Part shown: positions 817 through 36,000 of the stretch, piece after piece
How the letters are laid out: each line of letters opens with the position of its first letter
How positions within the stretch are numbered: the first letter of the stretch is position 1
Assembly: GCA_041665485.1 (NCBI GenBank)
Contig: JBAYIT010000001.1
Coordinates: 204,270-268,269 of the forward strand
Length of the DNA stretch: 64,000 bases
Reading direction: 5' to 3'
Source: Candidatus Shapirobacteria bacterium
Lineage (GTDB): Bacteria > Patescibacteriota > Microgenomatia > UBA12405
Program-made: the position numbers and the translations under genes
The notes under the pieces: generated by a model
What the model saw: the letters and a program-made list of their open reading frames with translations, nothing else
Databases searched by the model: none
What the model was told of the DNA's origin: nothing

Positions 817-1248
817 TTATGGAGTACCTTTGGTAATATTCCAAAGAAGATAAAAGATTTGTTTTTGGGTGGTGGCGATTTGTTGATTTTTGACCTCGAC
901 GCCAAAATACTCGTGGTTAAAAATGTGGTAAAAGGCGAAAATGTCGTTATAAATATAGGTATCATGGTTGAGAGTTAGCTTGGCTTTGGGAATAAATCGG
1001 TGTTGATAAAACTTGTTAAAATAGTCCTTGTTTTTGGTAAAAGAATTGTTTTGAGTGGGGTCGTTGCTGATTTCTTTGTTAATAATTTGGCGGTTGAGAT
1101 ATTCTTGGCGTAAAAACTCGGCATATTGGAGACCAACACCTTGATTCCAATCAAGATAGCCGTAACCGACAACTTCGTTGGTGGCGGAGAGGGTGTTGTA
1201 AAGAAGTTGCTTGAGGCCATCAACCCCGCGATAATAAAGAATCTTGGT
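817..1248 (-). pseudogene. 3' (C-terminal) fragment of a trmB-family transcriptional regulator gene, separated from its 5' half by the inserted element
   Basis: A 140-codon open frame on the minus strand contains no Met codon, so the ORF track missed it. It begins right after the recombinase stop region and reads 'IQRCSPTKILYYRGVDGLKQLLYNTLSATNEVVGYGYLDWNQ…WNITKGTP*'. This resembles the C-terminal domain of TrmB-family regulators. It lines up in-frame with the N-terminal half at 8553..8909 through a shared 'ctccccc' core. Confidence 0.6.
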
Positions 1249-2782
1249 GGGGGAGCATCGTTGAATTTATTGGCTGATTTAGGAAGATGTAATACGCTTT
1301 TTTCCAGTCCAATCCGAGTTTTCCGTCTTTCCACACCAAGTTCTCACAGAAAATGTCTACCATCTCTCTTTTGTTGTGGGGTAGTGCGATCCTTAATCTT
1401 TCAGTAACGTATTTGATGTTGTCTAAAAATGCGTTCATTAGGTCGTCTAGCTCGCGTTCAATGTTTTCGCATTTAATAACAGTATTTTTTAATGACGCTT
1501 CTTTTAATTCACTATCTTTTGTTAAACTATCGTAAGCTCCTTTTGTGATCTCTCCGGAAGAAAACTTTCTTCCTATGTTAATTTGTGCTTGTTTCTCAAC
1601 AGAGATTTTTTCTCCCAACTTCCTAATTTCCGCCTTGATTTTTATTAGTTCCGGTTGATTGAGTTCAGTTACGTAACCACGACCGGCACTCCAACCCTCC
1701 TCGTCCAGTTCGATAGATCCGAATGCTTTCATCAAATCATTTTCTAAATTTGACTCTGTTACGTAGCTAGTTCGCTTGATTTCTTTACACGGAGAGTTTT
1801 TCTTTCCGCATCGATAATACGTTATACCCTTCTTGTGTGTTCCCGAAAGCCAACCTCCACATAGCCCGCATTTTATGAGTTTGTTGGAGTAAGCGTAGTC
1901 TAACAAAGTTTCTTTTGGATGTTCGTTATCAGACAATACCTCTTGGACTCGGTAAAATAATTCGGACGAGATAAGCGGCTCATATTCTCCTTTTATTCTT
2001 CCACCCTCATGATAAAAGATTCCGGTATATTGGATATCTATCAATCGATTTCGCCATGTATTTTTTGAAAACTTTCCTGTTGTTGTTTTTGAGTTATTTG
2101 ATCTTAAGCCAATATCATAAGCAAAATCGGCAATTTGTTCGAAAGTAAATTCACCAGTAGCAAACTGTTCAAAAACCCTTTTAACGAGCGGCCCGGTCAC
2201 TGAATCAACCAACCACTTTTTCTGACCTGTTGGGCCTTCTGTTTTATACCCTAAGACAGGCGGTCTTGCAGGATGCTTCATATTATTAGCTTTCGACCTC
2301 ATCCCTGCTTTAGTTCTGATTCCGGTTTCGTCACTAGATTTTTTCGACATCGCAAATTCTATTGCGACCATCAACTGATCAGATGACGAATCGGTAAACA
2401 CTTTTGACGGGGTGTAGATTCTTTTTATCAAACCACTTTGTAAAAACCACAATATCTTACCACCGTCGCCAAAGTTACGTGCCAATCGACTAATTTCAGT
2501 ACACACAATCCCATCAATTTCGCCTCTGTGATCTTCGAGAAAAGTTAACATGTCACCAAAACCATCTCGAACGTAGGCTTCATATCCTGTTTTATCATCC
2601 TTAAAGGTTTTAATAATTGGTTTTAATTGATACTGCTGTGGTGCTTTCCTTGCAAATTCTAATTGATATTCAAGCGAATTCAGTTGCTTGTGGGCTTCAC
2701 CATCCTTGTTGTCTTCCGACGATTTCCGGATATAAGCTACCACTCTATCAAACTTTTGATTATCGTCGCTTGTGGATGTCAT
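1220..2782 (-). CDS. Large serine recombinase (integrase) with an N-terminal resolvase-type catalytic domain, a recombinase domain and a Cys-rich Zn-ribbon
   Basis: The N-terminus 'VVAYIRKSSEDN…' carries the catalytic Ser and has a resolvase-like layout. The central recombinase domain is followed by 'CGLCGGW…YYRCGKK…C' (Zn ribbon) and a C-terminal coiled-coil. 520 aa. Confidence 0.8.
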   Translation of the reverse strand: MTSTSDDNQKFDRVVAYIRKSSEDNKDGEAHKQLNSLEYQLEFARKAPQQYQLKPIIKTFKDDKTGYEAYVRDGFGDMLTFLEDHRGEIDGIVCTEISRLARNFGDGGKILWFLQSGLIKRIYTPSKVFTDSSSDQLMVAIEFAMSKKSSDETGIRTKAGMRSKANNMKHPARPPVLGYKTEGPTGQKKWLVDSVTGPLVKRVFEQFATGEFTFEQIADFAYDIGLRSNNSKTTTGKFSKNTWRNRLIDIQYTGIFYHEGGRIKGEYEPLISSELFYRVQEVLSDNEHPKETLLDYAYSNKLIKCGLCGGWLSGTHKKGITYYRCGKKNSPCKEIKRTSYVTESNLENDLMKAFGSIELDEEGWSAGRGYVTELNQPELIKIKAEIRKLGEKISVEKQAQINIGRKFSSGEITKGAYDSLTKDSELKEASLKNTVIKCENIERELDDLMNAFLDNIKYVTERLRIALPHNKREMVDIFCENLVWKDGKLGLDWKKAYYIFLNQPINSTMLPHQDSLLSRG

Positions 2783-3122
2783 CGTTTACTGCTTTGTATA
2801 GCTTTCGACCAAGTAATAATAAATCTTTGGGTTTATTGACACTCCTGTCGACGAGCTTCATTACTTCTTGTAAGTCTGTCTCAACTACTCGATCCTTATG
2901 GATTTTCTCGCCTACTAATCTCTCTCTATAATAAATCCGCGCTTGTGGTTCGGTGTAAACTTTCTTGATTACTTTTACAAATCTTTTCATATCACCAAGT
3001 AGCTTGGCGATGTCAGTCTCACTCAACCCCGGATCGCGTTTTCGCAGGTAGCTTACAAACCTTTTTTGAGCCGGTGTATTGTTGTCCATATTCACGTAAC
3101 TGATTATACAATTATCGGACAC
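2760..3122 (-). CDS. Small hypothetical protein upstream of the recombinase gene, overlapping its start; possible directionality or regulatory factor
   Basis: 120-aa ORF on the same strand, overlapping the recombinase start by 23 nt (operon-like). No recognisable motif. Confidence 0.4.
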   Translation of the reverse strand: MSDNCIISYVNMDNNTPAQKRFVSYLRKRDPGLSETDIAKLLGDMKRFVKVIKKVYTEPQARIYYRERLVGEKIHKDRVVETDLQEVMKLVDRSVNKPKDLLLLGRKLYKAVNDDIHKRR

Positions 3123-3456
3123 TCGTTAATTTCCCACAAACTATTTACTTTGGTTTACTTCTTTTACAAAGGCAAAACGAGTGACATTTATTCAAGATTC
3201 AGTCCCTTAAAAAAATTTCAGAATGGCGATTTCACCCCCATCTCACCCCCATTTTACCACCAGTCTCCTGCCTGACTTTTGTTGACGAATAAAAAATCAT
3301 TTTGTCGATTTTATAACGTTTTTACTACGCTTTTTTTACCATTTGTTTGATGGAAAATTGAGTATACGAAAAATATGTAATTCTTTTTACTTTCTTTTAC
3401 CCAAATAGACAATAAAAGAGGTAGAATACGACAATAAAGATAATATAGATTTTATT

Positions 3457-6321
3457 ATGAAAAAGAATCGTTTTGAGGTAGAAAACTTCAAGTTCAAATT
3501 TTTACCAGATACTCCTCTATCTTCTACAAAAGACACTGTTATGTTTGGTCACGAGCAAGTCGCTAAAGCACTCCTCAATATCGTTGTAGGGTCAACTCCT
3601 CCTTTTACAATAGGGCTTTATGGGGGTTGGGGGTCAGGTAAGTCAACTGTCATCAATTTATTAGCAGAAGAACTGGATAACATAAACGTAAAACATGTCG
3701 TGTTTGATGTTTGGAAATATAGTGAAGATTCTCTCCGTCGCCAGTTTCTCATCGAGTCTGCAAGACAATTAGGACAAACATCCAAAGTAAAAAAACTTAC
3801 GGAAAAGTTCGTATATTCTCTTACTAAAAAAATTGAAACAATCCGGTTTACACCCAAAAAATTTATCGTAAGTATCATCCCCATTGTTTTATTCTCACTA
3901 GTTTGGAGTTGGGTAACAGGGGATATAAACCAATGGAAAAGTATCACAATTCTATGCTTAGGGGGAGCATTTATTTTTCAAAAATATCAAGACAAATTGT
4001 TGATAGTTGATGATAATGTCTTAACTAGAGATAAAATATCCCAACCGGAAGAATTCGAAAATGAATTCAAAGAGATCGTTAATGATAGTAATGAAAACAA
4101 ACTCTTGTTTATTTTTGATAATTTAGACAGGGCTCCGAGGCAAAAAGTTGTCGAACTATTAACCACAATAAAAACATTTCTAGAAATAAGGAAGTGCATA
4201 TTTCTTGTTCCTTGTGATGAAACCGCAGTAAGGAAGCACATTAGCTCTGCCCTTTTGTCAAATGACTCAAAAAAAATATCTGATCAAGATAAACAAGATT
4301 ACGCTGATGAGTTTTTGCGGAAGTTCTTTAATACAGTTGTGAGGATGCCAAAGGTCGAGTATCTAGATCTTGACGTATACACTACATCTCTGTTAAATGA
4401 TACCCAAATAGAACTTTTCAATAAAAACCCAGACTTACTCGAATTAATTACATACTCCTTTAAGAATAATCCGAGGGAGATTAAGCAATTTATTAATTCT
4501 CTGATATCGCTAATAATTATTGTTTATGAAAGATTTGATGAGAAAATAACTAAAAAATTATCCAAAAACGATATTGCATTTTTTGCAAAAGTTCTTATTC
4601 TAAAACAGAAATACCACGACATTTATACAAAGTTGGAAGAGAGCATCTTAAATGATGCCATGGATTGGACTGAAGCCGAAAAAGGAGTCTTGAGGGGAAC
4701 GTTGGAAGAGTCAATGAAGTTTTTGAAAAATACATATTACATCACTCCCGATACTCTCAATGTAGGATCATATATTACATTAAAACAGTCGAAGGAGGAG
4801 ATTTCGTTACCCGGCTGGGAACAATTTATTCAAGCGTGTTTAAGTAGAGATGTCGAATCTGCCTCTAAGTTCGTAAATTCATTCATTAAGCAAGACAAGA
4901 TTAGTATCTTTGAAAACTTTTTACTTTATTATCTAAAATCTAATAGTCAGAGACAGGCTTTAATCAGGCCAATTTCTTCAACATGTGTGAAAGTATTTTC
5001 TGATATCTTAAACACGTCTATTCCTCCTAAGGTTGCTCGTGAATTAGCACGACAGATTTCTGGCCCACTTCTTAGGCCAGACACCTACGAGGATTACCCA
5101 ATACAAAATACAATAAAAGTTGTCAAATCGGGCATTAATAAAACTCAGAACAAAGAGCTTAGTCAAGCCTACATAGGCCTTTTTAATCATGCTGATAACA
5201 ATAGCCGGCTTATACTCAAAGAAGACTATGCATTGTCCATTCTTAATCATGTTTCTACAGATATAGAGTATTTCCAATCATCAATTCGTAATGTTAAAGA
5301 TCTTTTGAAAGATAGATTAAACTCAAGAAAATATATTGAAGTGTTTATCGATAAAGATAATCTTGAAAAGTTTATTTCCAATGAAACAATAACCAACTAT
5401 ATAACAAGAAACTTTGACGCAGGAACACTCAATGACGACGATGAATTGAGAAAAAATCTTGGCCTTTTAAATACAATCGGAGAATTAGACGAAGGACAAA
5501 TAAGGTTAATAGTTGAGAAGGTTAAAGAATTAATTGCCGCAGAATCAAACAATCCACCTGATAGAAACCAGAGAGATGTTTTAATTGAGTTCTTAACAGG
5601 TTTCATTGAGAAATTCCTTGATACTATTTCTACAGCCGAAGTTGAATATGTCAGTTCAAATATCGGCGTAATTTCAACATCAGCGACAGCTTGGTATAAC
5701 AACTCTTCATGGAGCATAAAAACAAAAGTGTTTTTACTTTCTCTCATACTCCGAAAAATTGACAAAAACGATAAAAACACAACTCTAGAAAGTTCTATAA
5801 TAAAGCCGTTTATTCAAAATGCTCCATATGATGAGGCATTTTCTACTTTAGATGAAAAGGTCGTTGAGGAAATAATTTCAAAAAATTATCCAGAATATAT
5901 CAAAGGATGTATGCGGTCATATGATTTTTTTACTAAAGGTTTTAAGTATTTATCATCCGATCAAAGAGGACAAATAGCTCTATCCATGATGTCGTCAAGT
6001 TTGGAGTTCTCTGTAAATGCTATTAAGAAATCTAATTATTTGATTGGTGCATCTACTGTTAGTGTGTTAAATGAACTATTCAATCGACTTGATTCCCAAG
6101 ACGAGAACTTCAAGGCTAATGTTTTCGAAATTGCATATAAAACACATTGTGGAAAAGACCCTGCTGTGGAAGAGAGATTTTTTAATGAGTTAAAGAATGT
6201 AAAGGGAAGTGATTTTGGAGACAGGATGATAAAAAAATATGTCAAAAAGCAGGGGAGGTTGTTTAGTAAAAGTCAGAAAAGTGATTTGTTAAATGTCACG
6301 CCAATACCCGCCGCTTCCTAA
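3457..6321 (+). CDS. KAP-family P-loop NTPase, 954 aa
   Basis: Walker A 'GLYGGWGSGKST' followed by 'FDVWKY'. A hydrophobic insert sits inside the NTPase domain ('IIPIVLFSLVWSWV…ILCLGGAFIF'). Walker B 'LLFIFDNLDR'. The C-terminal region is long and weakly conserved. This architecture is typical of KAP NTPases. Confidence 0.8.
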   Translation: MKKNRFEVENFKFKFLPDTPLSSTKDTVMFGHEQVAKALLNIVVGSTPPFTIGLYGGWGSGKSTVINLLAEELDNINVKHVVFDVWKYSEDSLRRQFLIESARQLGQTSKVKKLTEKFVYSLTKKIETIRFTPKKFIVSIIPIVLFSLVWSWVTGDINQWKSITILCLGGAFIFQKYQDKLLIVDDNVLTRDKISQPEEFENEFKEIVNDSNENKLLFIFDNLDRAPRQKVVELLTTIKTFLEIRKCIFLVPCDETAVRKHISSALLSNDSKKISDQDKQDYADEFLRKFFNTVVRMPKVEYLDLDVYTTSLLNDTQIELFNKNPDLLELITYSFKNNPREIKQFINSLISLIIIVYERFDEKITKKLSKNDIAFFAKVLILKQKYHDIYTKLEESILNDAMDWTEAEKGVLRGTLEESMKFLKNTYYITPDTLNVGSYITLKQSKEEISLPGWEQFIQACLSRDVESASKFVNSFIKQDKISIFENFLLYYLKSNSQRQALIRPISSTCVKVFSDILNTSIPPKVARELARQISGPLLRPDTYEDYPIQNTIKVVKSGINKTQNKELSQAYIGLFNHADNNSRLILKEDYALSILNHVSTDIEYFQSSIRNVKDLLKDRLNSRKYIEVFIDKDNLEKFISNETITNYITRNFDAGTLNDDDELRKNLGLLNTIGELDEGQIRLIVEKVKELIAAESNNPPDRNQRDVLIEFLTGFIEKFLDTISTAEVEYVSSNIGVISTSATAWYNNSSWSIKTKVFLLSLILRKIDKNDKNTTLESSIIKPFIQNAPYDEAFSTLDEKVVEEIISKNYPEYIKGCMRSYDFFTKGFKYLSSDQRGQIALSMMSSSLEFSVNAIKKSNYLIGASTVSVLNELFNRLDSQDENFKANVFEIAYKTHCGKDPAVEERFFNELKNVKGSDFGDRMIKKYVKKQGRLFSKSQKSDLLNVTPIPAAS

Positions 6322-6344
6322 TTCTAATTGAAACGGACAGATTC

Positions 6345-6563
6345 CTAAAACGGAAATAAATCTTGGACTTTCACATTTAACGCTTTGGCTAGGCGGTATA
6401 CAGTTTTTAACGATGGTTTTCGACTACCTGCCTCAATAAATTGGATATACTTCGTACTCAACCTGACTTTTTCCGCTAGTTGATCTTGAGTAAATCCAGC
6501 CAACTTTCTATATTTTTTAATTCTTTTTCCGAGTTTTAAATCATTTTCAGTAATCATACCCAT
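6345..6563 (-). CDS. XRE-family (Cro/CI-type) helix-turn-helix transcriptional regulator
   Basis: 72 aa. 'LGKRIKKYRKLAGFTQDQLAEKVRLSTKYIQFIEAGSRKPSLKTVYRLAKAL' is the canonical HTH_XRE pattern. Confidence 0.8.
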   Translation of the reverse strand: MGMITENDLKLGKRIKKYRKLAGFTQDQLAEKVRLSTKYIQFIEAGSRKPSLKTVYRLAKALNVKVQDLFPF

Positions 6564-6574
6564 AGGGTATGGGT
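6558..6574. promoter_or_regulatory. Perfect palindrome ACCCATAgggTATGGGT overlapping the XRE start codon; candidate operator
   Basis: Inverted repeat read directly from the sequence. A second inverted repeat, AAAAACAgctTGTTTTT, lies at 6619-6635 in the same divergent intergenic region. Confidence 0.35.
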
Positions 6575-6662
6575 AATGTGATGTTGATAGAACCTACTGT
6601 GTGTATCTGTTTAGATTCAAAAACAGCTTGTTTTTACACCAACTGTCTGTTACTATTTATTT

Positions 6663-6899
6663 GTGAAAGAAGAATATGTTTGTAGGAATTGTGGTTATAT
6701 CGGTGAAGCTGATAAAAAGGTTTCAGGATCATTTTTGGTTGAGGTTTTACTTTGGTGTTTGTTTATTCTCCCCGGAATAATTTACAGTATTTCTAGGTAT
6801 GCCAAAAAAGTCTTGATTTGTCCTGAATGTGAGAAAGAAACTTTAATCCCTACTTCATCAAAAATGGGAATAAAACTCGTAAGAGACATGGGTAGGTAA
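6663..6899 (+). CDS. Small Zn-ribbon membrane protein (CxxC…CxxC with one TM helix); GTG start
   Basis: 'CRNCGY…' and 'CPECEK' flank the hydrophobic segment 'FLVEVLLWCLFILPGIIYSI'. The only in-frame start is GTG at 6663. Confidence 0.45.
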   Translation: MKEEYVCRNCGYIGEADKKVSGSFLVEVLLWCLFILPGIIYSISRYAKKVLICPECEKETLIPTSSKMGIKLVRDMGR

Positions 6900-6936
6900 T
6901 TTGGTAAAATACACTTAATCTAGACATTTAATTTCT

Positions 6937-8415
6937 ATGTTTTGGCATGATGTAACCCTAGGAACATTTGACCCGATCAATAAAGGTGTTGGATTAGATT
7001 ATCGTAATCTTTTTCATGACCCCATCTTGGTCGAAACAATTCTCGCACACGAAGGAACCCATTATGCGATTTCTGAGACAACTGAATTCGGTCAAGCTAC
7101 TCATAGCCTCTTTAAATTACAGGATTCAATAGTTAAGATTGACCCAATTGAGTATGAGAATATGTTGGGAATCATTTACAATAGCCAGATCGCAGTTCAA
7201 GAAGGTTTCGCTACTTTGATGGAATTACTAAGACGCAAATCTAAAACTTCAAAAGCAGAAACACTTAGTTGGGCTTCACAAAATTTACCACTAGAATATC
7301 AACGGTGGGTCAATCCAATGTTATTTGTACTCGATTTATCAAGTTCATATCGTGATCAATTTACAGCAAAGGTGTCTCATTTAGCTATGACCACATCAAT
7401 TAGACGAGATATTCCAAAATTAAACCTTCTTTCAGATATCAATAAATTGAGAGACTACCTTGACGAGGATGACAATAATCCAAACAAAAGACTAAACCTA
7501 CTAGTTAATACCCTAAGTTCGAGACCATGGATGTGTACAAAAGATAATAATACTTTACTTAAAGAATCAGGTTTATATGTTCGGGAATCAGTTACAAAAC
7601 CGGAAATAGCGTCATTCTTAACTTACCTTACTTCATTTACAGACAACCCATACAATTTTTCAGAAACAGACATTGGTGACCCTGTTCCTGATAGTAGAGT
7701 GTTCATAGATGCTTTTAACAATACATTTGTTGCGAATATGAATTTAGATTTCACGAAAAATGGCGTTGTTATTTATGATCATAATAAATACGTAATCGAA
7801 TCGAAAAACTTTGAGGCAATAACTGCATTTCCCAGAGAAGGTAGACCTGATTTGACAGACTACCTTAGACGAGTTTCAACAGATGAGCCTGAAGTTGATA
7901 TTATTGGTTTTACAAAAACAGGTACCAGTTTTCTCACTACTACTTCCAAGAAAAAAGCGAAAACACTTATTGAAAGTTTGGATTGTCCATTTTTTGTCAG
8001 ATATGGTGATTTTGATAATCAAAAAAATACCCTGTTTTGGATGCCAGACCTTAAGACACCAGATTTTATTGTCTATAGATATCCGGAAAACTTAAATAGA
8101 TGTTTAGGAGAAATTTTAAAAGCAAGACCAGCCCAGTCTTTTAAACATGTTCATATTGGATCATCTGAGGGGAGTCCTTTACAAACATTGATCGTAAAAT
8201 CTGAGGGTATAAAAACTTTCCATGTGGTAAACACATATGGAAATGTAAAAGTAGGGGAAATAATAAAATCAATCCAAGCACAATCAGCAATAATGAGTAA
8301 CGACGATATCAACAATCTAAAAACACCGATCAATTGTTTCTTTTCTATATGGTCGGGGATGGGATGGAAATTAGATTGGGTAGAAATACTAACTAGCCAA
8401 CAATCTGAAACTTAG
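6937..8415 (+). CDS. Hypothetical 492-aa protein with an N-terminal HExxH motif ('AHEGTHY'); possible Zn-metallopeptidase, speculatively ImmA/IrrE-like
   Basis: The HExxH motif sits near residue 38. The rest shows no recognisable similarity. Confidence 0.4.
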   Translation: MFWHDVTLGTFDPINKGVGLDYRNLFHDPILVETILAHEGTHYAISETTEFGQATHSLFKLQDSIVKIDPIEYENMLGIIYNSQIAVQEGFATLMELLRRKSKTSKAETLSWASQNLPLEYQRWVNPMLFVLDLSSSYRDQFTAKVSHLAMTTSIRRDIPKLNLLSDINKLRDYLDEDDNNPNKRLNLLVNTLSSRPWMCTKDNNTLLKESGLYVRESVTKPEIASFLTYLTSFTDNPYNFSETDIGDPVPDSRVFIDAFNNTFVANMNLDFTKNGVVIYDHNKYVIESKNFEAITAFPREGRPDLTDYLRRVSTDEPEVDIIGFTKTGTSFLTTTSKKKAKTLIESLDCPFFVRYGDFDNQKNTLFWMPDLKTPDFIVYRYPENLNRCLGEILKARPAQSFKHVHIGSSEGSPLQTLIVKSEGIKTFHVVNTYGNVKVGEIIKSIQAQSAIMSNDDINNLKTPINCFFSIWSGMGWKLDWVEILTSQQSET

Positions 8416-8552
8416 TATTCAAGTCCACTCTTGCTACTATGTTTGAGCAAAATTATGCGATAGGGGATGATTACCGAGGCAATTTACTAGAATCGAAACA
8501 TCGTACTCCGAAGCTGGAATTGGTGTAAGCAACTGTTTGATATAGTACCTTC

Positions 8553-8909
8553 TCACAGCTTCCAACCGTCGGAGGGGGAGGAACTTTCGAGTTGTTGGAG
8601 ATTGGGGAGGAGAGAGGTGAGCGATTGATGGAGAGTATTGAGTTCAATTTGTTTATTTTGAAGAACAAGTTTTAGTTTTTCTGGAGGGGAGGCGGAGTAA
8701 CGGGTGGTTTTATGGTCGAGGATTTCTTCGACGAGGCCAAGGCGGGAGAGGTGTTCAAGAAGGCGATAAAGAGTGGTGCGGTTTATTGGTAAAGAGCGGG
8801 AAAGAGAGAGGGCGGTTTGGGAGGGTGATTGGAGGAGATTAAGGTAAACTTGGGATTCTTGAGTGGTAAGCCCAAAAGCCTCTAGTTCTGATACTAAGTT
8901 GTTCATCAT
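8553..8909 (-). pseudogene. 5' (N-terminal wHTH) half of the trmB-family regulator gene disrupted by the element
   Basis: 'MMNNLVSELEAFGLTTQESQVYLNLLQSPSQTALSLSRSLPINRTTLYRLLEHLSRLGLVEEIL…' is a TrmB-type winged helix followed by a coiled-coil. The frame ends in a stop 18 nt after the 'ctccccc' junction core. The ORF-track entry 8553..9194 is an artefactual upstream extension. Confidence 0.6.
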
Positions 8910-8958
8910 TATGAACAACAGTTTAACAAATTGGAATATGGGATGTAAAGTAGGGGGT

Positions 8959-9342
8959 ATGAAAGAACAGCTTGGTGGGATTTTGAAAACTAGAAGGGAA
9001 TTGATTAAGTATGATCCATCTTGGTGGGTAGTGGCCACTAATGGTAGGGAGCATGTAGGGGAACACGATTGGGCGGTGCCAATTTCGGGTGGAGAAGAGG
9101 GTGTTTTGTTGTTCAGAGTTAATGGTGATGAATATCTTGATATGACGGTAGAAGTAGGAGAACGAAAAATGTCTATTAGAAAGGTTTGGCCCAAGAATGG
9201 TGAACTTGAATGGGAGGTTAAACTTACTATGGAGATGGCGGGTGAATTGGGCGGAGTATTGAGCGAGGTGGGAGAGTTAATGCAGAAGTTAACGATAGAT
9301 CAAAAGAGAGCGACGGCGTTATGGCCGGTGGGAATTAGATAA
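8959..9342 (+). CDS. Hypothetical protein transcribed divergently from the trmB-like gene
   Basis: ORF 8863..9342. The start was chosen at MKEQ (8959), which is preceded by 'gtaggggg'. No known motif. Confidence 0.35.
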   Translation: MKEQLGGILKTRRELIKYDPSWWVVATNGREHVGEHDWAVPISGGEEGVLLFRVNGDEYLDMTVEVGERKMSIRKVWPKNGELEWEVKLTMEMAGELGGVLSEVGELMQKLTIDQKRATALWPVGIR

Positions 9343-27020: not shown

Positions 27021-30000
27021 TTAGTTAATGATCCACCAATTAATATCAATATTATGATCGAGGGGGTTGTCGATGGCAATGGTGAAACTAGATTTTAGAT
27101 CTTGGATGTTAGATGTTGGATCAATGTATTTGTCTTTAATATAAATGACTTGATTGTTAGTTGAGCCGACGGGGGTGAGGTAGACCATGGAAGCAGAAGT
27201 GAGTTGGTTGTTGAGGATGATGATTTCGGTTTGGCCGGCGATGAGAGTAGTGGTGCCGGCGGTAGTATTGGAAGCGATTTCCGCCGATTGGGTAGCAGAT
27301 TCACTCGGATCGGCTTGGGCGATGGCGACGTTGGGGAGGATGGTTAACTTGTTAGATCTTAGATCCTGGATGTTAGATGTTAGAGCGGTGAGAGAGGTGG
27401 TTTGAATATCGGAGGCAGTTATAAGATAGGTGGAGAGGGAACCCGAAATTGTGGCAGTTTGAGCGGTTAAGGTGCCGTTTAGATAGATATTTCCATTAAC
27501 AGTGACATCGCCGTTGTCGGCAATAATAAGAGTGTTGTTCATGATGTTAATAGTGCCAACTTTGGAGGGTTGAATGTAGAGAACCGAGGCGGTGGTTTCA
27601 ATAAGATTGTCTTTAATGATAATTTGGCCGGATTGGAGGGTGCCGGAAATTAGGGCGTCGGCCAATTCGGCTTGGCCGGCGACGGCCAACTGCCCAGCAA
27701 CAACCAGATTGTCGGTAAGAGCCAGAGAGCCGGTAATTTGAGCCGAGCCGGTGGAAATATCAGCCAGCCAGTTTTCTGATTGAGAGAGTAAGACGTCTTC
27801 TGGGGGAGTAGTAACAGTGGATGTGTCGATGATTTTCTTGACTTCGTCGCGGAGGGCGGAGATTTTTTGAGTCATCAGGTCGCCAAAGTTACCTTCACGG
27901 CTGATGATTTGATCGGCGTAGAGGATGCCACTGATGGTGGCATCTTTAGATCTTAGATCCTGGATGTTAGATGTTAGAGCGGTGATAGCGTTGGCGGAGA
28001 GAGTGGTAACACCGATGTCTTGGGCGGTGATGGTTTTGGATTTTAGATCCTGGATGTTAGATGTTAGGGAGTCAAGGTGATCGACATTAAGGCTGGGGGT
28101 TTTAATGTTTTGAGCGAAGAGAGAGCCAATAACTTCGGTGTCGCCGCCGATTTTGAGAGTAGAACCAATACCGGTGTTAGAGATTGGTGTAATAGTTTGT
28201 GTTTCGATATCATTAGATACTAATTTGGAAGTATTAATGATTCCTGCCTTTAGATTGGCAATAAGAGCTTGACTGAACTGTCCAAGACGGGTAACGGCGG
28301 AGCCGTTACTGGATGTTAGATGATAGATCTTAGATCCTGGATCTTGGATGTTAGTTTCTGGTGAAGTGACGATCTGGCCGAGGGTGTCGAGAGTAAGGAG
28401 GGTGTCGGGGTCAAACCAGCTAGGTTGGACTAAAGCGAGAATAGTGCAGTTACCCGGGTCAGAGCAGGAAGATGAGCTTTCCAGAGCTTTACCGATAATT
28501 GGCCCCGAGGTGGTGGCTTTTTGGGCACGGCCTTCGATGGTGGTAGAAGCAGTGAGCGGATCTCCAGGGCTAATAGCTCCATTTTCGAGGGTGATTTTAA
28601 CTGGCACTCGGCCGGAAAGAGCGATGGGGTAGACATTTTGGGAGGTTTCCGAAGAGCCAAGAAGAAGACCGGGATTAGTAGAAACGACACCGACGAGTTT
28701 TTGACTGCCGGCTTGGGCGCGGAGGACATGGCCAGTGTTTTCGAGATCGAAGGTAACAAGTTCGCCGGTGGAGAGATTTTGAGTAGAGGGGTAATTTTCG
28801 GCCAAATCGGCGTTGGCGGTGTCAACCGAGCCGATGTGTAAGACACTGCCATAGTTATTTTGATAATACTGTTTGAAGTACATATCGACGGCGGTATAGC
28901 TGGCGGTGTCCCAGACTGAACCGTTGTAGTAACCAGCTTGGCCTCCAGTATAGGTTGAACTACTATCTTTTTCTCTGACATTGATGTAATTTGATCCGTC
29001 TCCACCAGTGGAGGTGGTGGTAACAAGACAGTATTTGGTACCGGCTTGGAGATAGGGCTTGGTAGAGAAGGTGAGGGAATATTCGGCGCCAGGAGAAGCG
29101 GTTTCGCCAATGCTGGTGTTGGCGATATTACTCGAGGTGGCGACGACGGTTCCGTTTGGTTGGTTGCCATCGCAATTTTGGAGCTGAACAGAGAAGTTGT
29201 AGGAACCGGCACCGACTTTCCATAACTGGAGAGTAACTTTTGACAAGCTACCACTGGCTTGGGGAGTGAAACTTTGAGAAAAAAGACGAGTGCCGTAAAC
29301 AGCAAAACTATTGTTGGGGCCAGTGAAGCCTTGGTCGAGGGTTTCGGCGCCGGCAGCAGTGGAAACATCAATTCGGGCGCTGACGGAACCGTCGGATTTA
29401 TAGAAATAGAAATCATTACCACTGCCGGCCCAGAGACGAAGATCGTCAGTGCCACCTTGTTTGATGTCGCCACCGGCAACAATTAAACTACTACCAACGC
29501 TTAGACTGGTGGATAAATAACCATTGCCAACAACCTGAAGTTTGTAGGTAGGATTGGTAATGCCGATACCGACATTGCCGGTAGAATTTTGGATAAATAA
29601 TCTTGAATTTCCATCCTGATCAATATGGAAGGCGCTGGTAGTGGTTGGCTGTGACAATGTCCAAGTGCTTCGACCAGTTTCAACTAAGATAAACTTTGGC
29701 GTTGTCCCGGCAGTAGTCAAACTGTATATCGTGTTATTTGATTTAATGATGCCATTTACATCGAGGGTATAGCCTGGTGCGGTGGTACCAACACCAACAT
29801 TGCCGGTAGTGTAAAGGTTAGTAAAGCTAGCGGTGCCACCGACATTGAGAAGATAGAGAGCGTTGGTGGAGCCAATACCAAGGCGAGTAGAGATTAAGGC
29901 ATCGCCATTAACTTCTAGTTTGTAGAGGGGATTAGTTGTACCAATACCGACATTTCCGTAATTTGTTATTGTCATTGCTCTTGATAATCCAGCGCTAGCA

Positions 30001-33000
30001 TTACCTACATCGAAACCTAATGCGGAATTCACCCAGCTTGACCCTCTTTCAAATCCCCCAGTTATTCTTGATGCACTTCCAATCCAACCGGCACTACTAC
30101 CGTCATTGTTTTGAAAGACAATACTTGGGGAATATCTTCCGGGAGAGGAAGGAGAGCTGGTTAGAGTAAGTTGGGGATTATTGGCTGAGCCTGTAGTACT
30201 ATATAGGTGTAGTGAGCTTGTCGGAGCAGTTGTTCCAATACCAACATTGCCACTAGCATGAAGATTAGTAAAGCTAGCGGTGCCACCGACATTGAGAAGA
30301 TAGAGAGCGTTGGTGGAGCCAATACCAAGGCGAGTAGAGATTAAAGCATCGCCATTGACATGGAGTTTGTAGAGAGGAGCGGTGGTACCAATGCCAACAT
30401 TGCCGGTGGAATTTAGAAAAAGCTGGTTATCCCAACCGGTGATATCACCAGTGGTAGAAGTGGAAGAAGCAAGAAGTAATCCGTTACTATAGCCACGAAT
30501 TTGAGTGGCGGCGTTACTGACAATATGTCTTAGTGTACTACCAACGGCGACAGCATTAAAACGGATGGAACCACTTTGGTAGAGAGAGAGAGAACTGTCG
30601 CTAATTGAAGTAGAGTTAGATGTGTTGAAGTAGTAAGCGGTATTGCCAATGTCGACGAACTTGGTGCCAGTGATGATGCCGTTGGCGCTGATGGTGGCGG
30701 AGGAGCCAACACTTAGAGTGCCACCGATACTAAGATTGGTGGTAAAGTTGCCATTACCGATGACGTTGAGTTTAGCGGTGCTAGTAGCGCCGATGCCAAC
30801 ATTACCACCAAACATAGCATTGCCATTAATGCGTAAGTTAGCAGTTTGATCAGCGGTAAATTGATTTTGGACGAAGTCACCGGTGTTACCAATATTTAAA
30901 TAATAACTACCATGTTGGCCATCGAGGAGATCAGCACTTAGGTTGGTGACAGTGTTGGTGCTACCGACAGAGACAAAAGTACCACCGATGGTTAAGTTGG
31001 TGGTGATATTGGCAGAACCACTAACGTTGAGCTTGTAGGAAGAATTGGTTGCGCCGATTCCTAATGGTCCAAACATACTGACAGATCCGTATTTAAGATA
31101 ATCGTTGTAATTTGTAGAGAAAGCGTTGGCTTGATCGCCTTCGTAGAGCGAAACTGAATCGATCCAATCTGTATCACCGGCATGGGAAGTGCCGGTGTTG
31201 GTTAACATGAATATACTTATGGTTTTGTCGTCACCGATGGTGAAATTGGTTGACTGCCAGTGCCAGGCGTCGTCTTTAATGAGAGTTTGGTTGCCGTAGG
31301 CGACAATATAAGAGGTTCCATCATAAACACCGAGTTGAAGAGGGAGAGTGTTGGTTGAGCTAGATTTATACCAAAAGTTTAAGGTGTATTTTCTGGCCGT
31401 TGTCAGAGTGCTTCGAGGAGGGACGGTGTATTTTGCTCCTTGCCAGGCGCCACCATCAACCATTTTTAAAGAGTAGGTTGACTTATAGCCGGTGTCTCGG
31501 GAGAAGGTGCCACCATTGGATATCCAGGCGTCGGGAATGGATGAAGTGCCGATATTCCAATAATCAAAATTGCCATTGTTGATTAAATTGGCGGGAGCAT
31601 TGGTGCCGTCGCCACCAACCAGGTGCCCGGATAGATTAAGATTGCCGGAAATATCAACTTTTTGAGAGGGGGCGGTGGTGCCAAATCCGACATTGCCAGA
31701 AGAGGCGATGTATAAAGCCTGGGTGTTGGAATTGATACCTAAGAAAGAAAGGCCAAAAGAAGAAACACCAATGTTGGTGTTTTGAGTTAGTGTTCCTCCT
31801 AGTCCAACAGAACTGGTGCCGATGGATTGAAGGCCATTGGTGGCAGCAATAAAGTCATTGGCGCCATTTTTATCCCAAGCAGTAGTGTCTAAATAACCAA
31901 CTAAACCACTATTACCACTCAAGAAAGCAGCCACACTTGATCCACCAATGGCAGTATTAGAAAGGTTTAAAGAAGCAGTGGTGGTGGTGGTGCCAACACT
32001 TAAATCAGCGTTAGTGTAGATAGAAGCGGTTGAAGTTCCACCTACACCTAGTTTAGTAAAGACACCTTCACCAGTAACATGGAGCTTGTAAAGAGGATTG
32101 GTGGTGCCAAGGCCAATGTTGGTGCCGGAGTCATAGATAAGAGAGTTGGTAATGCTGACAGTGGCAGTAGTGCCAGTGAATTTAGTGAGGTAGCCGGAAA
32201 TAGGGTTGTTATCAACCAAGGCGATGTCTTTGTAGGTGGTATAGGCGGCGGTGCTACCGAAACTGCCTTGGTAAAGACGCATTCCCAAGCTAGACTTGTT
32301 AAATTCGAGGAGGTTTTGATTTCCACCTGAACCATCGAGATATGAATTAAGATGGAGGAAGTCTGCCCAAGGGCCGGCACTATTGTTGTTGTAGGCAGTA
32401 AAACCGAATTTTAGATTACTAGTGTTGACTTCAGTAGGACCTATTGAACGGTTGTCTTCCCCGTAGAGGCTAAGAGCTGGCCCACCTTCAGCGTTGGAAG
32501 TGGCGTAATTACCAGTAGTTTGAGTGCCGAGAGTAACATCTCCCCAAGAAAGATCACCATGCATAAGTTGGTTGACAGTACCGGAAGTGCCAATGAGTTG
32601 ATTGGTGGCATTGGTTCTAACCAGAGTGTTGGCGGTGACATTAGTTAGAGTAAGAGTATTACCAATAGAAAGAGTATTGCCAAAAACAGAAGCACCACTA
32701 ACACCAATGCCACCCGAGCTGATAGTTAAACCGGCAAAAAGAGGGGTAGCCCCGGTGTGGATGTTTTGAGGCAGGGAAAGGGTAACGGCTCCGGTGGGGT
32801 TGGAAGCAGTAATTTGATTAGTGGTACCAAGAATGCTGGTAACACCAATATTACTAAAGACATTGGTACTAGAAAGACTAATACCAACACCGGCGGTGTA
32901 AAGAGTGCCAGCACCACTAGTAAAAGCGCCAGCTCCTAAAACATTTTTGTATAAGTTACCAGATGAATCAATAAAAACGGCGGTGGTGCCGACGCCGGTT

Positions 33001-36000
33001 GTGCCAATTCCTAAACCAGAAAAATTAACAGTTCCGCCAACTCCCAAACTTCCAGTTCCACCGACTTGGAGAGTGTAAGAAGGGGTGGTAGTGGCAATAC
33101 CGACTTTACCGGTGGCATCGATTACTAATGCTACGCCACTTGCAAAAGTTTCAGAACCGTATCCAATCTTAAATTTGTGACTATCAGAGCCATCTCTACC
33201 AATCGACCATGAGGTACTTGTATTGGATCTAAAATTTATAACGCTATTGTTTGTAGATTTACCTTGTAAATATAGTAATGCGTTACCAGAGGCGACGTTG
33301 TCTATCATTACCCCAGAAGTCCCCACTATATCTAGGTTAACTCTTGGCCCCGTCGTTCCAATGCCAACATTGCCATTAGCCTTTAAATAAAGTGATTGAG
33401 TATTACCCGTACCCAGGAAAGAAAGATTGTAGGAAGAAAGATTAATGTTGGTGTTTTGAGTAAGTGTTCCACCTAGGCCAATAGATAGTTGATCAGTGCC
33501 AGAGATAGAAGTACCAATACCATTGTAACCAAGAATAGAAGCAGTATTACCAAGACCAATAGATTGAGCAGTACCCAGGGAACCAGCCAACATCCAACTA
33601 ACATTGGCTGATTGAGCATAACGATTATCAAGATCAACAGTGGCCAAAGAAGTGAGATGACCAAGACCATCAAGACCAATGTCTTGAATGACAATACCAT
33701 TACTGTTGTCAGAGGAAGCTTGAGAGGAAGTATCGGCGTGAGAGATAGTGGCACCAACTCCAGTACCGGTAACCACCATACTAGTTCCAGCTTGGAGATT
33801 AAGTAAACCATCAAAGGCCAGACCATTTAAAGCTCTTTTACTAACCACATTATTACTATCGATAAACAAGGCAGTGGTACCAGTACCAGCGACAGTGGAG
33901 GCACTTAAAGTTAAAGTACCACCGATGCCGACATTGGCAGAGAAAGAAGAAGTACCGGTAATACCAATACCACCACTGTTAATGAAAAGTGAATAGGTAC
34001 TATGAGTAGCTCCAACACCTAGTTTAGTAAAGACACCTTCACCAGCTACTTGGAATTTGTAGAGTGGGGCAGTGGTACCAATGCCGACATTACCAGCTGA
34101 CAAGATAGACATGGCATCTACGGGAGTGCCAGCAGTTCGAGTTCTAAAAAAGATACCGCCTAAAACAGCACTATTGTAAGTATTGTCGATATATAGGTTG
34201 GCAACACCATTACCGTTATAGTGAATGAGACCTTGGTAGGCAGCGTTGTTACCAATGGCGACCGAGCCATTATATGCTTGTGCCCCACCGATTGGATCCC
34301 AACCGTTGAACGTTGCTTGGGTGACGGAATTACTATAAACATTAAATGGACTAGTTGGATTAGTCATACCGATGCCTACATTGCCATTGGTAGTAATAGC
34401 CAGGGCTTGGGTGTTGTTATTAACACCCATGATGTAGAGATTGTTAGCACCAGTATTAATGAAAGTATTTTGAGTTAATGTTCCACCTAGACCAATAGAT
34501 AGTTGATCAGTGCCAGAGACAGAAGTACCAATACCATTGTAACCAAGAATAGAAGCGGTATTACCAATACCGACTTGTTGAGCAGTACCAGTATTGCCAG
34601 CCAACATCCAACTAATGTAAGTGTTGTCTTGAAAGGCTAATCCACCTAAAGCTCTTTTACTAACCACATTATTACTATCGATAAACAAGGCAGTGGTACC
34701 AGTACCAGCGACAGTGGAGGCACTTAAAGTTAAAGTACCACCGATGCCGACATTGGCAGTAAAAGAAGTATTGGGAGTAATGGTTAGTCCAAGTCCGGCG
34801 ATAGTAGTTAAGTAGGAAGCATTACCAAAGGTAACAGTAGCACCATTACCCATAAACAAAGGTGACTTGGCAGCAGTAGTAGCAGTAAGAGTGTTGCCAA
34901 CAGAAAGTGTGCCGGTGACACTACCATTACCAGTGACAGACAAAGAAGCGGTAGTAAGAGTGGTGCCAACAGAGAGACTGTTACCAAACACCGAAGCACC
35001 ACTAACTCCAATACCACCAGCGCTGATGGTCAATCCGGCAAAGAGAGGAGTGGAAGAAGTAGTTAGGTGTTGACCAGTGTTAAAGGCAAGTTGGCTGTCA
35101 CCAATAGAATCACCAATGATAGCCAGGGAGACACCAACTCCTTCACCGGCAGTACCAGTAACCCCAATTTGACTATTACCGATAATGGTAGAAACATAAT
35201 TACCGGCAGTTTGAGTGCCGAGAGTAACATCTCCCCAAGAAAGATCACCATGCATAAGTTGGTTGACAGTACCGGAAGTACCAATGAGTTGATTGGTGGC
35301 ATTGGTTCTAACCAGAGTGTTGGCGGTGACATTGGTTAAAGTGAGAGTGTTGCCAATAGAAAGAGTATTGCCAAAAACAGAAGCACCACTAACACCAATC
35401 CCACCCGAGCTGATAGTTAAACCGGCAAAAAGAGGGGTAGCCCCGGTGTGGATGTTTTGAGGAAGAGTTAAAGTAACAGCTCCGGTTTGAGCAGTAGCCG
35501 TAGTGCCATTGGCTAGTATTTGATTGGCAGTGCCAGTTAAAGAAAGGACACCAGTATTAGTAATGGTCAAAGCATCGGTACCGGAAATGGAAGTGCCAAT
35601 ACCACTACCAGCTAAGAAAGAAGCAGTATTACCAAGACCAATAGATTGAGCAGTACCCAGGGAACCAGCCAACATCCAACTAACATTGGCTGATTGAGCA
35701 TAACGAGAATCAAGATCAACAGTGGCTAGGGAAGTCAAATGACCAAGACCATCAAGACCAATGTCTTGGATGACAATACCATTACTATTGTCAGATGAAG
35801 CTTGAGAAGAAGTATCGGCATGAGAGATGGTGGCACCAACTCCGGTACCAGTAACCACCATACTAGTACCAGCTTGGAGATTAAGTAAACCATCAAAGGC
35901 AAGACCATTTAATGCTCTCCGACTAACAACATTATTACTATCGATAAACAAGGCAGTGGTACCAGTACCAGAGACAGTAGAGGCACTTAAAGTTAAAGTA

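Follow-up and report, generated by a model that had tools for sequence, protein, structure and literature searches.

The analysed stretch, called the window throughout, comprises 64,000 nucleotides of a Candidatus Shapirobacteria bacterium (contig JBAYIT010000001.1, positions 204,270 to 268,269). Close to its left end one gene for a TrmB/TrmBL2-like regulator (trmB) is found as two minus-strand halves that lie 7.3 kb apart, with the gene of a large serine recombinase (LSR) at one of the two junctions. Between them lies DNA of 7,319 bp, counted from one core to the other (1252..8574). With a probability of roughly 0.85, we interpret it as an LSR element of a family directed at tRNA-Asn, inserted at a look-alike site into a TrmBL2-like gene of a Microgenomates-type Patescibacteria host. 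Feature coordinates are collected in Table 1.

The interrupted trmB gene and its junctions

Read on the minus strand from 8909 downwards, the N-terminal half encodes MMNNLVSELEAFGLT…LQQLESSSPS and carries the TrmB winged helix-turn-helix (wHTH) domain (PF01978, 52 bits versus a cutoff of 25.6), whose best sequence match in the PDB was TrmB 3qph. In the integrated state this open reading frame (ORF) continues for 5 element codons (DGWKL) up to a stop at 8553-8555. The C-terminal half reads PTKILYYRGVDG…WNITKGTP* from 1251 to 817 and contains no methionine. Joining the reverse complements of 8571..8909 and 817..1251 restored a protein of 257 aa (…LESSSPSPTKILYY…). A total of 27 homologues of 250-275 aa each were found for the joined product at 97-99% coverage, all of them single Patescibacteria proteins spanning both halves (best homologue: 69% identity, E 3.5e-104); those with names include Beckwithbacteria and Roizmanbacteria proteins. 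The closest homologue, on contig L001, is an uninterrupted gene with a divergent radA neighbour as in the window. When L001 was compared to the window by blastn, its positions 4270-4652 corresponded to 8953-8571 and its positions 4649-4816 to 1255-1088, both without gaps, and the restored junction …LQQLESSSPSPTKILYY… aligned gap-free with …LQQLTTSSTSPTKVLYY… of L001. Given the 27 full-length homologues and the uninterrupted gene of L001 with its radA synteny, the two halves are a single gene interrupted by foreign DNA. Both retain every invariant residue of the family and are free of stops and frameshifts.

The structure of the restored protein was predicted with AlphaFold2 (AF2; mean predicted local distance difference test, pLDDT, 91.8). 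Best fold matches by Foldseek were TrmBL2 5bpd/5bqt (E 1e-13, full length, ~270 aligned columns), followed by TrmB 3qph. In the model the insertion point falls into loop 108-115, which follows the long helix 76-107 and leads into the first strand of the C-domain, and the C-terminal half supplies the phospholipase D (PLD)-like C-domain. The restored protein shares the arrangement of wHTH, long helix and PLD-like C-domain with the TrmB/TrmBL2 proteins of Thermococcales; in contrast to these its host is bacterial (Patescibacteria), its identity to TrmBL2 is 15-18%, and in the Pfam search PF11495, the TrmB C-domain, was not matched by its sequence. The wHTH was recognised directly, while a TrmB/TrmBL2-type C-domain on the same polypeptide was recognised via the homologues and the AF2 fold.

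One alternative takes the trmB pieces for two genes that are separate by nature, with the integrase region as an unrelated island; it is already refuted. Gene callers do annotate the N-terminal half as an ORF of its own, and nothing else speaks for it. All homologues cover both halves in one protein, the C-terminal half has no start codon, the colinearity with L001 switches from junction to junction within 4 nt, and the predicted fold is that of one TrmBL2-like protein. Base composition marks the same borders: between the junctions a G+C content of 0.33-0.37 and a GC skew of ~0 were observed, versus 0.40-0.48 and +0.3 to +0.55 outside. The inserted DNA is foreign, as both parameters change abruptly at either junction. 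The remaining host part (8600-64000) shows this strong plus-strand skew irrespective of gene strand, which is why the foreign 7.3 kb stand out and why trmB, a minus-strand gene, is rich in Ser, Pro, Leu and Thr codons.

The two L001 segments overlap by exactly 4 nt, CTCC, the core shared by the attachment (att) sites attL and attR. In the sister elements L008 and L025 (G)CTC is all that is common to both junctions, and the P and P' arms of attP form a dyad, CAAC-N12-GTTG, centred on the TC of CTCC. Based on this dyad and on the shared (G)CTC, the crossover dinucleotide is most likely TC at 8573-8572 and 1254-1253. The far junctions, at the element end opposite the integrase gene (int), read (G)CTC(C)-GAYG-GTTGRAAGCYGTGAGAAC in all sister elements and CTCC-GACG-GTTGGAAGCTGTGAGAAG in the window. 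As the sisters carry GAYG at this place, GACG in the window belongs to the element and the extra CTCCCC to the host. The sites deduced in silico are …GAAAGTTCCTCCCCCTCCCCCACCAAGATTC… for attB and …TTCAACGATGCTCCGACGGTTGGAAGCTGTGAG… for attP; the core region of the family attP reads …TTCAACGATGC-TC-CGAYGGTTGRAAGCYGTGAGAAC…. Short sites, a 2-bp crossover, an imperfect attP dyad and no long direct repeat are the features of serine-integrase att sites, and all of them are seen here. A search for far junctions by CTCCCC(C) turned out to be misleading, since the true shared core is only CTC(C), and was given up for a search with the P' arm motif, which succeeded.

A preliminary description of this DNA, made from its letters alone, had proposed two halves of one TrmB-type gene 7.3 kb apart with a Met-less C-terminal half, an LSR-bearing element interrupting this single gene, a 520-aa LSR at the left junction with a frame crossing the att core into host DNA, no long direct repeat, and boundaries that can be fixed to a few base pairs. 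All of this was borne out. Its 7-bp core 'ctccccc' had to be corrected to CTCC (8574..8571, 1255..1252). Copies of the 7-mer are found at 8580..8574 and 1255..1249, and a third, irrelevant one at 3967..3961; the apparent 7 bp result by accident from the host CTCCCC-CTCC repeat. An in-frame join at the core had also been described. The frame can indeed be restored, but the 255-aa version was 6 nt short at the far junction and left a 2-residue gap against all 14 aligned homologues, which is absent from the 257-aa join; the suggested in-silico join of 8909→8577 to 1252→817 amounts to 769 nt and not to whole codons. As proposed there, the joined product was compared with TrmB, giving PF01978 and the full-length homologues but not PF11495, and an uninterrupted allele was looked for. 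Relatives with the intact gene beside radA were found, the nearest of them 69% identical, but no same-species empty site.

The integrase family, its tRNA-Asn target and the trmB site

The integrase comprises a resolvase-type catalytic domain (PF00239, E 2.3e-16, residues 14-167) with the nucleophilic serine S21 in YIRKSS, a Recombinase domain (PF07508, E 3e-11) and a zinc ribbon (PF13408, E 2.3e-6) with an embedded coiled coil, the latter represented by long helices at 376-457 in the AF2 model. S21 is the same in all 38 family members, and C305, C308, C325 and C332 are likewise invariant in the family. By domains and catalytic residues it is an intact LSR, and recombination activity is predicted. 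More than 100 relatives with 39-68% identity were found, nearly all from Patescibacteria assemblies. Identity to any phage LSR (INPHARED) stayed below 27%, and the closest solved structure by sequence was the C-terminal domain of the A118 integrase (E 1.5e-5). When the C-termini were aligned, family conservation ended abruptly at …NSTML, which is the att core, and the tails then diverged. In the window the frame passes the crossover by 10 codons, with residues 1-510 coming from the element and the last 10 (PHQDSLLSRG) from trmB DNA. Many post-core tails of relatives read R-x-D-S-N, the reverse complement of the tRNA T-loop.

A total of 84 related loci were fetched, and 52 had enough downstream DNA for target calls. 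In 38 of the 52, ARAGORN identified an opposite-strand tRNA-Asn(GTT) gene that overlaps the 3' end of the integrase gene. Seven further loci were assigned to tRNA-Asn by sequence, four of them interrupted at the anticodon region and three cut or masked, which yields 45/52; L011 is cut by the contig end, L019 is masked, and the anticodon loop is interrupted in L013, L014/L049, L033 and L042. Counted as distinct junction sequences, 28/32 were tRNA-Asn and 4/32 were not. The family crossover lies at acceptor-stem positions 71-72 of tRNA-Asn (acceptor end …GGGGGAGC), and the gene stays intact after integration because attP repeats its GGAGC end. In these 45 of 52 loci the integrase gene abuts the tRNA gene and attP rebuilds its 3' end, in contrast to the window copy; the only tRNA genes of the window are at 56.1-56.4 kb. 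Judged from these junctions, the integrase family is a tRNA-Asn-targeting clade.

Two observations concern the tRNA gene itself. Many copies integrated at the tRNA gene end their truncated integrase frame at the TAA in …GTTAAC… (L002 11521-11557 and relatives), a sequence that is the reverse complement of the Asn anticodon loop. Using Rfam, a group I intron (RF00028) was detected in the tRNA-Asn of L013 (11500-11740) and of L014 (11071-11350), the two loci scanned, so that intron and integrative element share one tRNA-Asn gene there. Introns of group I within tRNA-Asn genes of Patescibacteria have already been described (PMC13011429).

Next to this clade-wide pattern, the trmB insertion is a singleton in the available sequences. 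Using tblastn with restored TrmB, matches in the 84 loci were confined to L001, where the gene is intact, and L005, which represents the same strain as the window (JGI 3300037810; 1 single-nucleotide polymorphism (SNP) over 2.9 kb; its contig ends inside the element at window position 2872). An apparent frameshift of the L005 integrase (194 + 326 aa) was rejected, as it coincides with a scaffold N-run at L005 648-657. No trmB insertion was found in the 51 other informative loci, nor among ~120 homologue tails except for the same-strain P0055. An element dedicated to trmB, as implied by the preliminary description, is contradicted by tRNA-Asn in 45/52 loci and by trmB beside no other member.

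How the trmB site resembles the usual target became visible when both were written in the same orientation. At this site trmB has CTCC-CCC-ACCAA-GATTC-TTTATT on its sense strand; reverse-complemented tRNA-Asn has CTCC-CCC-GCGTG-GATTC-GAACC and that of L025 -TCTAA-GATTC-GAAC, with CTCC-CCC-N5-GATTC as the shared half-site. A position weight matrix (PWM) was built from the tRNA arms of eight close relatives and scored on both strands of the restored 56.7 kb. At a length of 17 nt the trmB site ranked 1 of 113,330. In the restored sequence it is also the only one of 630 CTCC sites with at least 13 matches to the L025 arm (14/22). The P and P' arms of the window copy are typical of tRNA-targeting members. 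These similarities suggest that the trmB site is a captured pseudo-attB, an off-target or secondary site mimicking the tRNA half-site in its core-proximal part. Mimicry of the full 26-nt tRNA arm was considered and rejected (rank 140); just the proximal 17 nt are mimicked.

Several points weigh against this explanation. The PWM rank depends on the chosen length, with 95 at 12 nt, 16 at 20 nt and 140 at 26 nt versus 1 at 17 nt. Immediately before the core, the B arm has C at trmB and G in all sites of the tRNA type. Other junction types outside tRNA genes recur too, at least three in number (L009/L038/L039; L030/L031/L050; the tails of P0042/P0058); because of them, the clade is able to take up new targets, and a lineage-specific shift to trmB is possible, as only one strain was sampled. 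Finally, neither a same-species empty site nor an excised circle (attP form) was found in JGI metagenome contigs, IMG/VR or a collection of 5.8 billion proteins. A 33-nt IUPAC pattern covering attB, attP, attL and attR gave 0 hits in the JGI metagenome contigs, a collection evidently without this population and uninformative on the empty site. As to the non-tRNA junctions, the post-core tails of P0031/P0048/P0059, P0042/P0058 and P0075/P0095/P0097 are conserved at the protein level in the integrase frame, and the site of L009 is situated within or close to the 5' end of an acetyltransferase-like ORF.

Serine integrase genes at the end of elements that interrupt a coding sequence at a short core, where excision would restore the ORF, are known from SPβ/spsM, skin/sigK and the Listeria A118/φ10403S comK system. 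By analogy, the element might be a dedicated reversible interrupter of trmB that regulates gene integrity, excision restoring the regulator. Precise excision at TC within the CTCC core did restore in silico the intact 257-aa ORF, gap-free versus its homologues; the two trmB halves are undamaged, as are the integrase, a small conserved ORF upstream of it and the detached integrase C-terminus described below; and disruption of the target gene is far commoner with LSR elements than with those that use tyrosine integrases (PMC7192596). We nevertheless consider such a switch improbable. The criterion of the same study is that one integrase clade has integrated several times independently at the same position; 0/51 loci and 0/~120 homologues were found here. 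The att sites of the clade match the tRNA-Asn target, and a recent insertion would leave the halves just as intact. Moreover, the sites of SPβ, skin and A118 are recurrently used and their excision is regulated, whereas trmB is a singleton in a clade whose usual target is a tRNA; the element here has 7.3 kb without phage genes, and its integrase is distant from all phage LSRs. A recurrent regulatory switch at trmB is not supported by the loci compared.

Capture of a look-alike site would have proceeded as follows. The element's own LSR inserted it into the linker of trmB between the DNA-binding/dimerisation part and the C-domain. The normal attB of its family is formed by the last acceptor-stem bases of tRNA-Asn(GTT), where the exchange is harmless; in this genome the integrase would have used the look-alike CTCC-CCC-ACCAA-GATTC in trmB instead. 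A 118-aa fragment of wHTH plus helix would stay under the native promoter, and the C-domain would be left without a start codon.

The attP site and the detached integrase tail

The preliminary description had noticed that the integrase frame runs into host DNA. The cause had been missed: attP lies in the integrase ORF, and a 44-codon C-terminus is found at the other end of the element. This detached C-terminus, Int(C), reads LRWLKAVRTYFVKQLLTPIPATEYDISVL…, LRWLKVVRTVFYEQIITPTL… and similar in sister elements. At the far junction the integrase frame is open for 44-47 codons in 8/8 elements, while the other two frames close after 3-33. Differences between the Int(C) sequences follow the order of codon positions 3>1>2 (positions 1/2/3: 0.25/0.22/0.37 within 30 nt of the core and 0.54/0.43/0.67 beyond), and a near-invariant Leu at codon 4 is encoded by TTG, CTG or CTA. 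Using a hidden Markov model (HMM) of Int(C), matches were found at the far junctions of further elements and in no integrase protein. A profile of junction plus tail (A3) run against the 5.8 billion proteins retrieved five orphan Int(C) ORFs (P0150-P0154), all fused to host-derived starts, and no full-length integrase in attP form. The conserved in-frame ORF at the far junction leads to the conclusion, from comparison of the elements, that attP lies inside the integrase ORF and that integration splits Int(N) (1-510) from a conserved 44-residue tail; a 554-aa protein would be encoded only by the excised circle. In the Dojkabacteria-type relatives (39-43% identity) no far junction was found within 10 kb, for which reason the split ORF is documented only at ≥49% identity. 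For two of the non-tRNA cases mentioned above, L009 (site 10768) and L030 (site 10876), a far junction of the usual kind with Int(C) is located 5.8 and 7.4 kb upstream.

On this basis Int(N) would keep all folded domains and gain 10 host residues, the 44-residue tail would come to lie at the opposite end, and the full 554-aa integrase would be made from the excised circle only. Loss of the tail may matter for integrase activity. When the 554-aa integrase was reconstructed and modelled with AF2, all folded LSR domains were seen to end by residue ~501. Two points concerning the tail weigh against this part of the explanation. It is predicted with pLDDT <50 and without confident structure, and as a minor alternative, an independent small ORF may start from an invariant GTG in it. 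The invariant GTGAGAAC in the tail probably doubles as an att-arm motif.

A gene organisation of this kind is known from the archaeal SSV-type 'suicidal' integrases (SSV1, pTN3, pT26-2), in which attP lies in the int gene, Int(N) and Int(C) end up at opposite ends, and the full gene exists in the circle only. Those enzymes are tyrosine recombinases whose catalytic domain is separated. Here the attP-in-ORF split was found, and neither an SSV-type tyrosine recombinase (PF16795) nor a separated catalytic domain; the topology is seen in a milder form, as this bacterial serine enzyme gives up only its last 44 residues and all recognisable domains stay together. Self-gene-disrupting integrases were stated to be exclusive to archaea in a review of archaeal recombinases (PMC8371274). 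The closest bacterial analogy is the integration-dependent immunity of mycobacteriophages, where attP lies in the repressor gene, integration removes 20-35 C-terminal residues and the stop comes from host DNA (PMC8092301). Integration shortens an element protein in both cases. In the mycobacteriophages, however, it is the repressor that is shortened, the integrase is a tyrosine integrase, and the lost tail is an ssrA-like degradation tag; the tails of the present family end in …FAQT, …TVT, …LNA and similar, without an -AA tag.

In the integrated state the integrase lacks the conserved tail, and no attP form of any family member was found in public data. Moreover, the second assembly of the same strain (L005) also carries the insertion. 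All this would fit an immobile remnant, an old fixed insertion whose truncated integrase is unable to excise it, comparable to the archaeal enzymes. We regard a remnant as rather unlikely, though less so than a trmB switch: Int(N) retains all folded LSR domains, the composition of the element has not drifted towards that of the host, and the conservation of the tail ORF and the att arms between elements of many hosts implies that the family keeps going through excision and integration. The element may still be able to excise.

With Islander-type tRNA islands the family shares integration at the 3' end of a tRNA gene, repetition of this end by attP, an intact gene after integration and a displaced fragment at the far end. 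Such islands use tyrosine integrases; here a serine integrase is found, and the duplication amounts to only ~5 nt (GGAGC), with the crossover at acceptor positions 71-72. The use of tRNA genes by large serine integrases has been described as not previously reported, with 14/297 predicted cases awaiting proof (PMC7192596). Our literature search retrieved no description of this integrase family, nor of an attP inside a serine integrase ORF.

Element genes, cargo and wider significance

Table 1. Coordinates of the trmB halves, attachment sites and element genes in the window.
Feature	Position	Strand	Basis
trmB N-terminal half, wHTH + long helix, 113 codons	8571..8909	-	PF01978 E 4.8e-14; colinear with L001 4270-4652
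trmB C-terminal half, 144 codons + stop, without own start	817..1251	-	colinear with L001 4649-5078
attL (B-core-P') core CTCC	8571..8574	-	4-nt overlap of blastn segments versus empty site in L001
attR (P-core-B') core CTCC	1252..1255	-	blastn overlap versus L001
P' arm of attP, GACG-GTTGGAAGCTGTGAGAAGG	8545..8570	-	motif conserved at far junction of ~17 sister elements
P arm of attP, AATTCAACGATG, inside int gene	1256-1267	-	adjoins attR core
B' arm of pseudo-attB, CCCACCAAGATTCTTTATTATCGCGG	1226..1251	-	resembles reverse complement of tRNA-Asn acceptor + T arm
Integrase ORF as integrated, 520 aa	1220..2782	-	Resolvase, Recombinase, Zn_ribbon_recom domains
Int(C), detached integrase C-terminus, 45 codons (LRRLEAVRRYYIKQLLTPIPASEYDVSILVNCLGNHPLSHNFAQT), stop 8437-8439	8440..8574	-	integrase frame from core
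Small conserved ORF, 120 aa, overlaps integrase start	2760..3122	-	homologue directly upstream of int in 8/8 elements
KAP-family P-loop NTPase, cargo, 954 aa	3457..6321	+	PF07693 E 3.3e-28
XRE-family helix-turn-helix regulator, 72 aa	6345..6563	-	PF01381 E 2.8e-17; homologues in 6/8 sister elements
Cargo ORF, 78 aa, CxxC pairs + hydrophobic segment	6663..6899	+	Pmp3 marginal
Cargo ORF, 492 aa, HExxH motif (AHEGTH) near N-terminus	6937..8415	+	no family match

Elements of the family span 4.9-8.0 kb from core to core. Their common genes are the integrase, the small ORF upstream of it (8/8 elements) and the XRE regulator (6/8), and the rest is variable. The small ORF has ~110-120 aa and the motif RFVxVxxKIYTEPQA (window; L006, L007, L009, L010, L011, L013, L018). 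For the 120-aa product of the window no credible family match was obtained in Pfam, PHROGs, PADLOC or NCBIfam, with marginal matches below the cutoffs only; it is a candidate accessory or directionality factor. The KAP NTPase matched QatA, PDC-S20 and PifA in PADLOC. A Qat system was not found: the NCBIfam QatA score of 92 bits lies below the equivalog cutoff of 600, the match is confined to residues 29-319 of the KAP NTPase, and QatB, QatC and QatD gave no matches. In the 78-aa ORF the hydrophobic segment reached 23.5 bits for Pmp3 (PF01679) versus a cutoff of 22.9, a marginal value, and zinc-ribbon matches were all below the cutoff. The 492-aa ORF had no match in Pfam, PHROGs, PADLOC or NCBIfam; its position downstream of the divergent XRE regulator recalls ImmR/ImmA-type pairs, which is speculation only. 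Cargo of sister elements includes a Dcm methyltransferase with a Z1/helicase protein (L044 759-4023), the candidate defence protein PDC-S39 (DUF7380/DUF4209; L008 6318-8405, also L035), an Mrr-type nuclease (Mrr_cat; L010 8581-9681) and a protein resembling type II restriction enzymes (REase_II-like; L025 6809-7852). From its gene content, the family looks like small integrative islands with variable defence-type cargo, possibly shuttling short cassettes of defence genes in Patescibacteria.

A small prophage or phage satellite would also combine a matching integrase (phrog_95), an XRE regulator and a size of this order, and some sister elements carry an uncharacterised ORF of 155-176 aa. We find this origin as improbable as a trmB switch. 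Apart from phrog_95, PHROGs matches of the element were limited to regulators and one family of unknown function; no capsid, terminase, portal or other virion, packaging, lysis, replication or conjugation genes were recognised with Pfam and PHROGs. IMG/VR contained no relatives (0 hits in the attP-pattern scan, none with the integrase profile), and the cargo is of the defence type.

The interruption of a gene by an LSR element is ordinary biology. The main interest of the locus is the family, 5-8 kb elements that are widespread among Patescibacteria, with a tRNA-Asn-directed serine integrase and attP in its own ORF, rather than the trmB interruption. To our knowledge, few mobile elements have been described in Patescibacteria. 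The family documents small ones with defence-type cargo, using the tRNA-Asn gene, in which a group I intron is also frequent in this phylum. It provides a large and consistent set of tRNA-targeting LSR cases in one clade and contradicts the literature views that LSRs are not known at tRNA genes (PMC7192596) and that self-splitting integrases are confined to archaea (PMC8371274). For a divergent, uncharacterised LSR clade attP, attL, attR and both natural and pseudo attB are now resolved to the base pair, which offers raw material for recombinase tools and for the study of site choice; 28 natural tRNA-Asn attB variants and four non-tRNA junction types, either pseudo-sites or alternative targets, outline CTCC, CC(C) and then GGAYTC as key positions. 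Loss of the effector domain in one of the host's few regulators may be a real phenotype.

We put forward only tentatively the broader proposal that the family represents the first bacterial serine-type self-splitting integrase, an LSR clade specialised on a tRNA gene in which the tail acts as a directionality or dosage switch and of which the trmB copy is a pseudo-site capture. If so, every integration would give a tail-less Int(N), and the switch would have its analogues in the suicidal integrases and in integration-dependent immunity. The trmB copy would then amount to a natural experiment, with the potential to turn into a reversible interrupter of a regulator where the organism has very few of them.

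Two further features of the window were noted outside the element. A 159-aa ORF at 8863-9342 on the plus strand, with no Pfam match, lies between trmB and radA, antisense to the trmB start and its upstream region. A giant minus-strand ORF of 4,833 aa extends from 27021 to 41522, and inside it the GC skew falls to ~0 between 32 and 38 kb.

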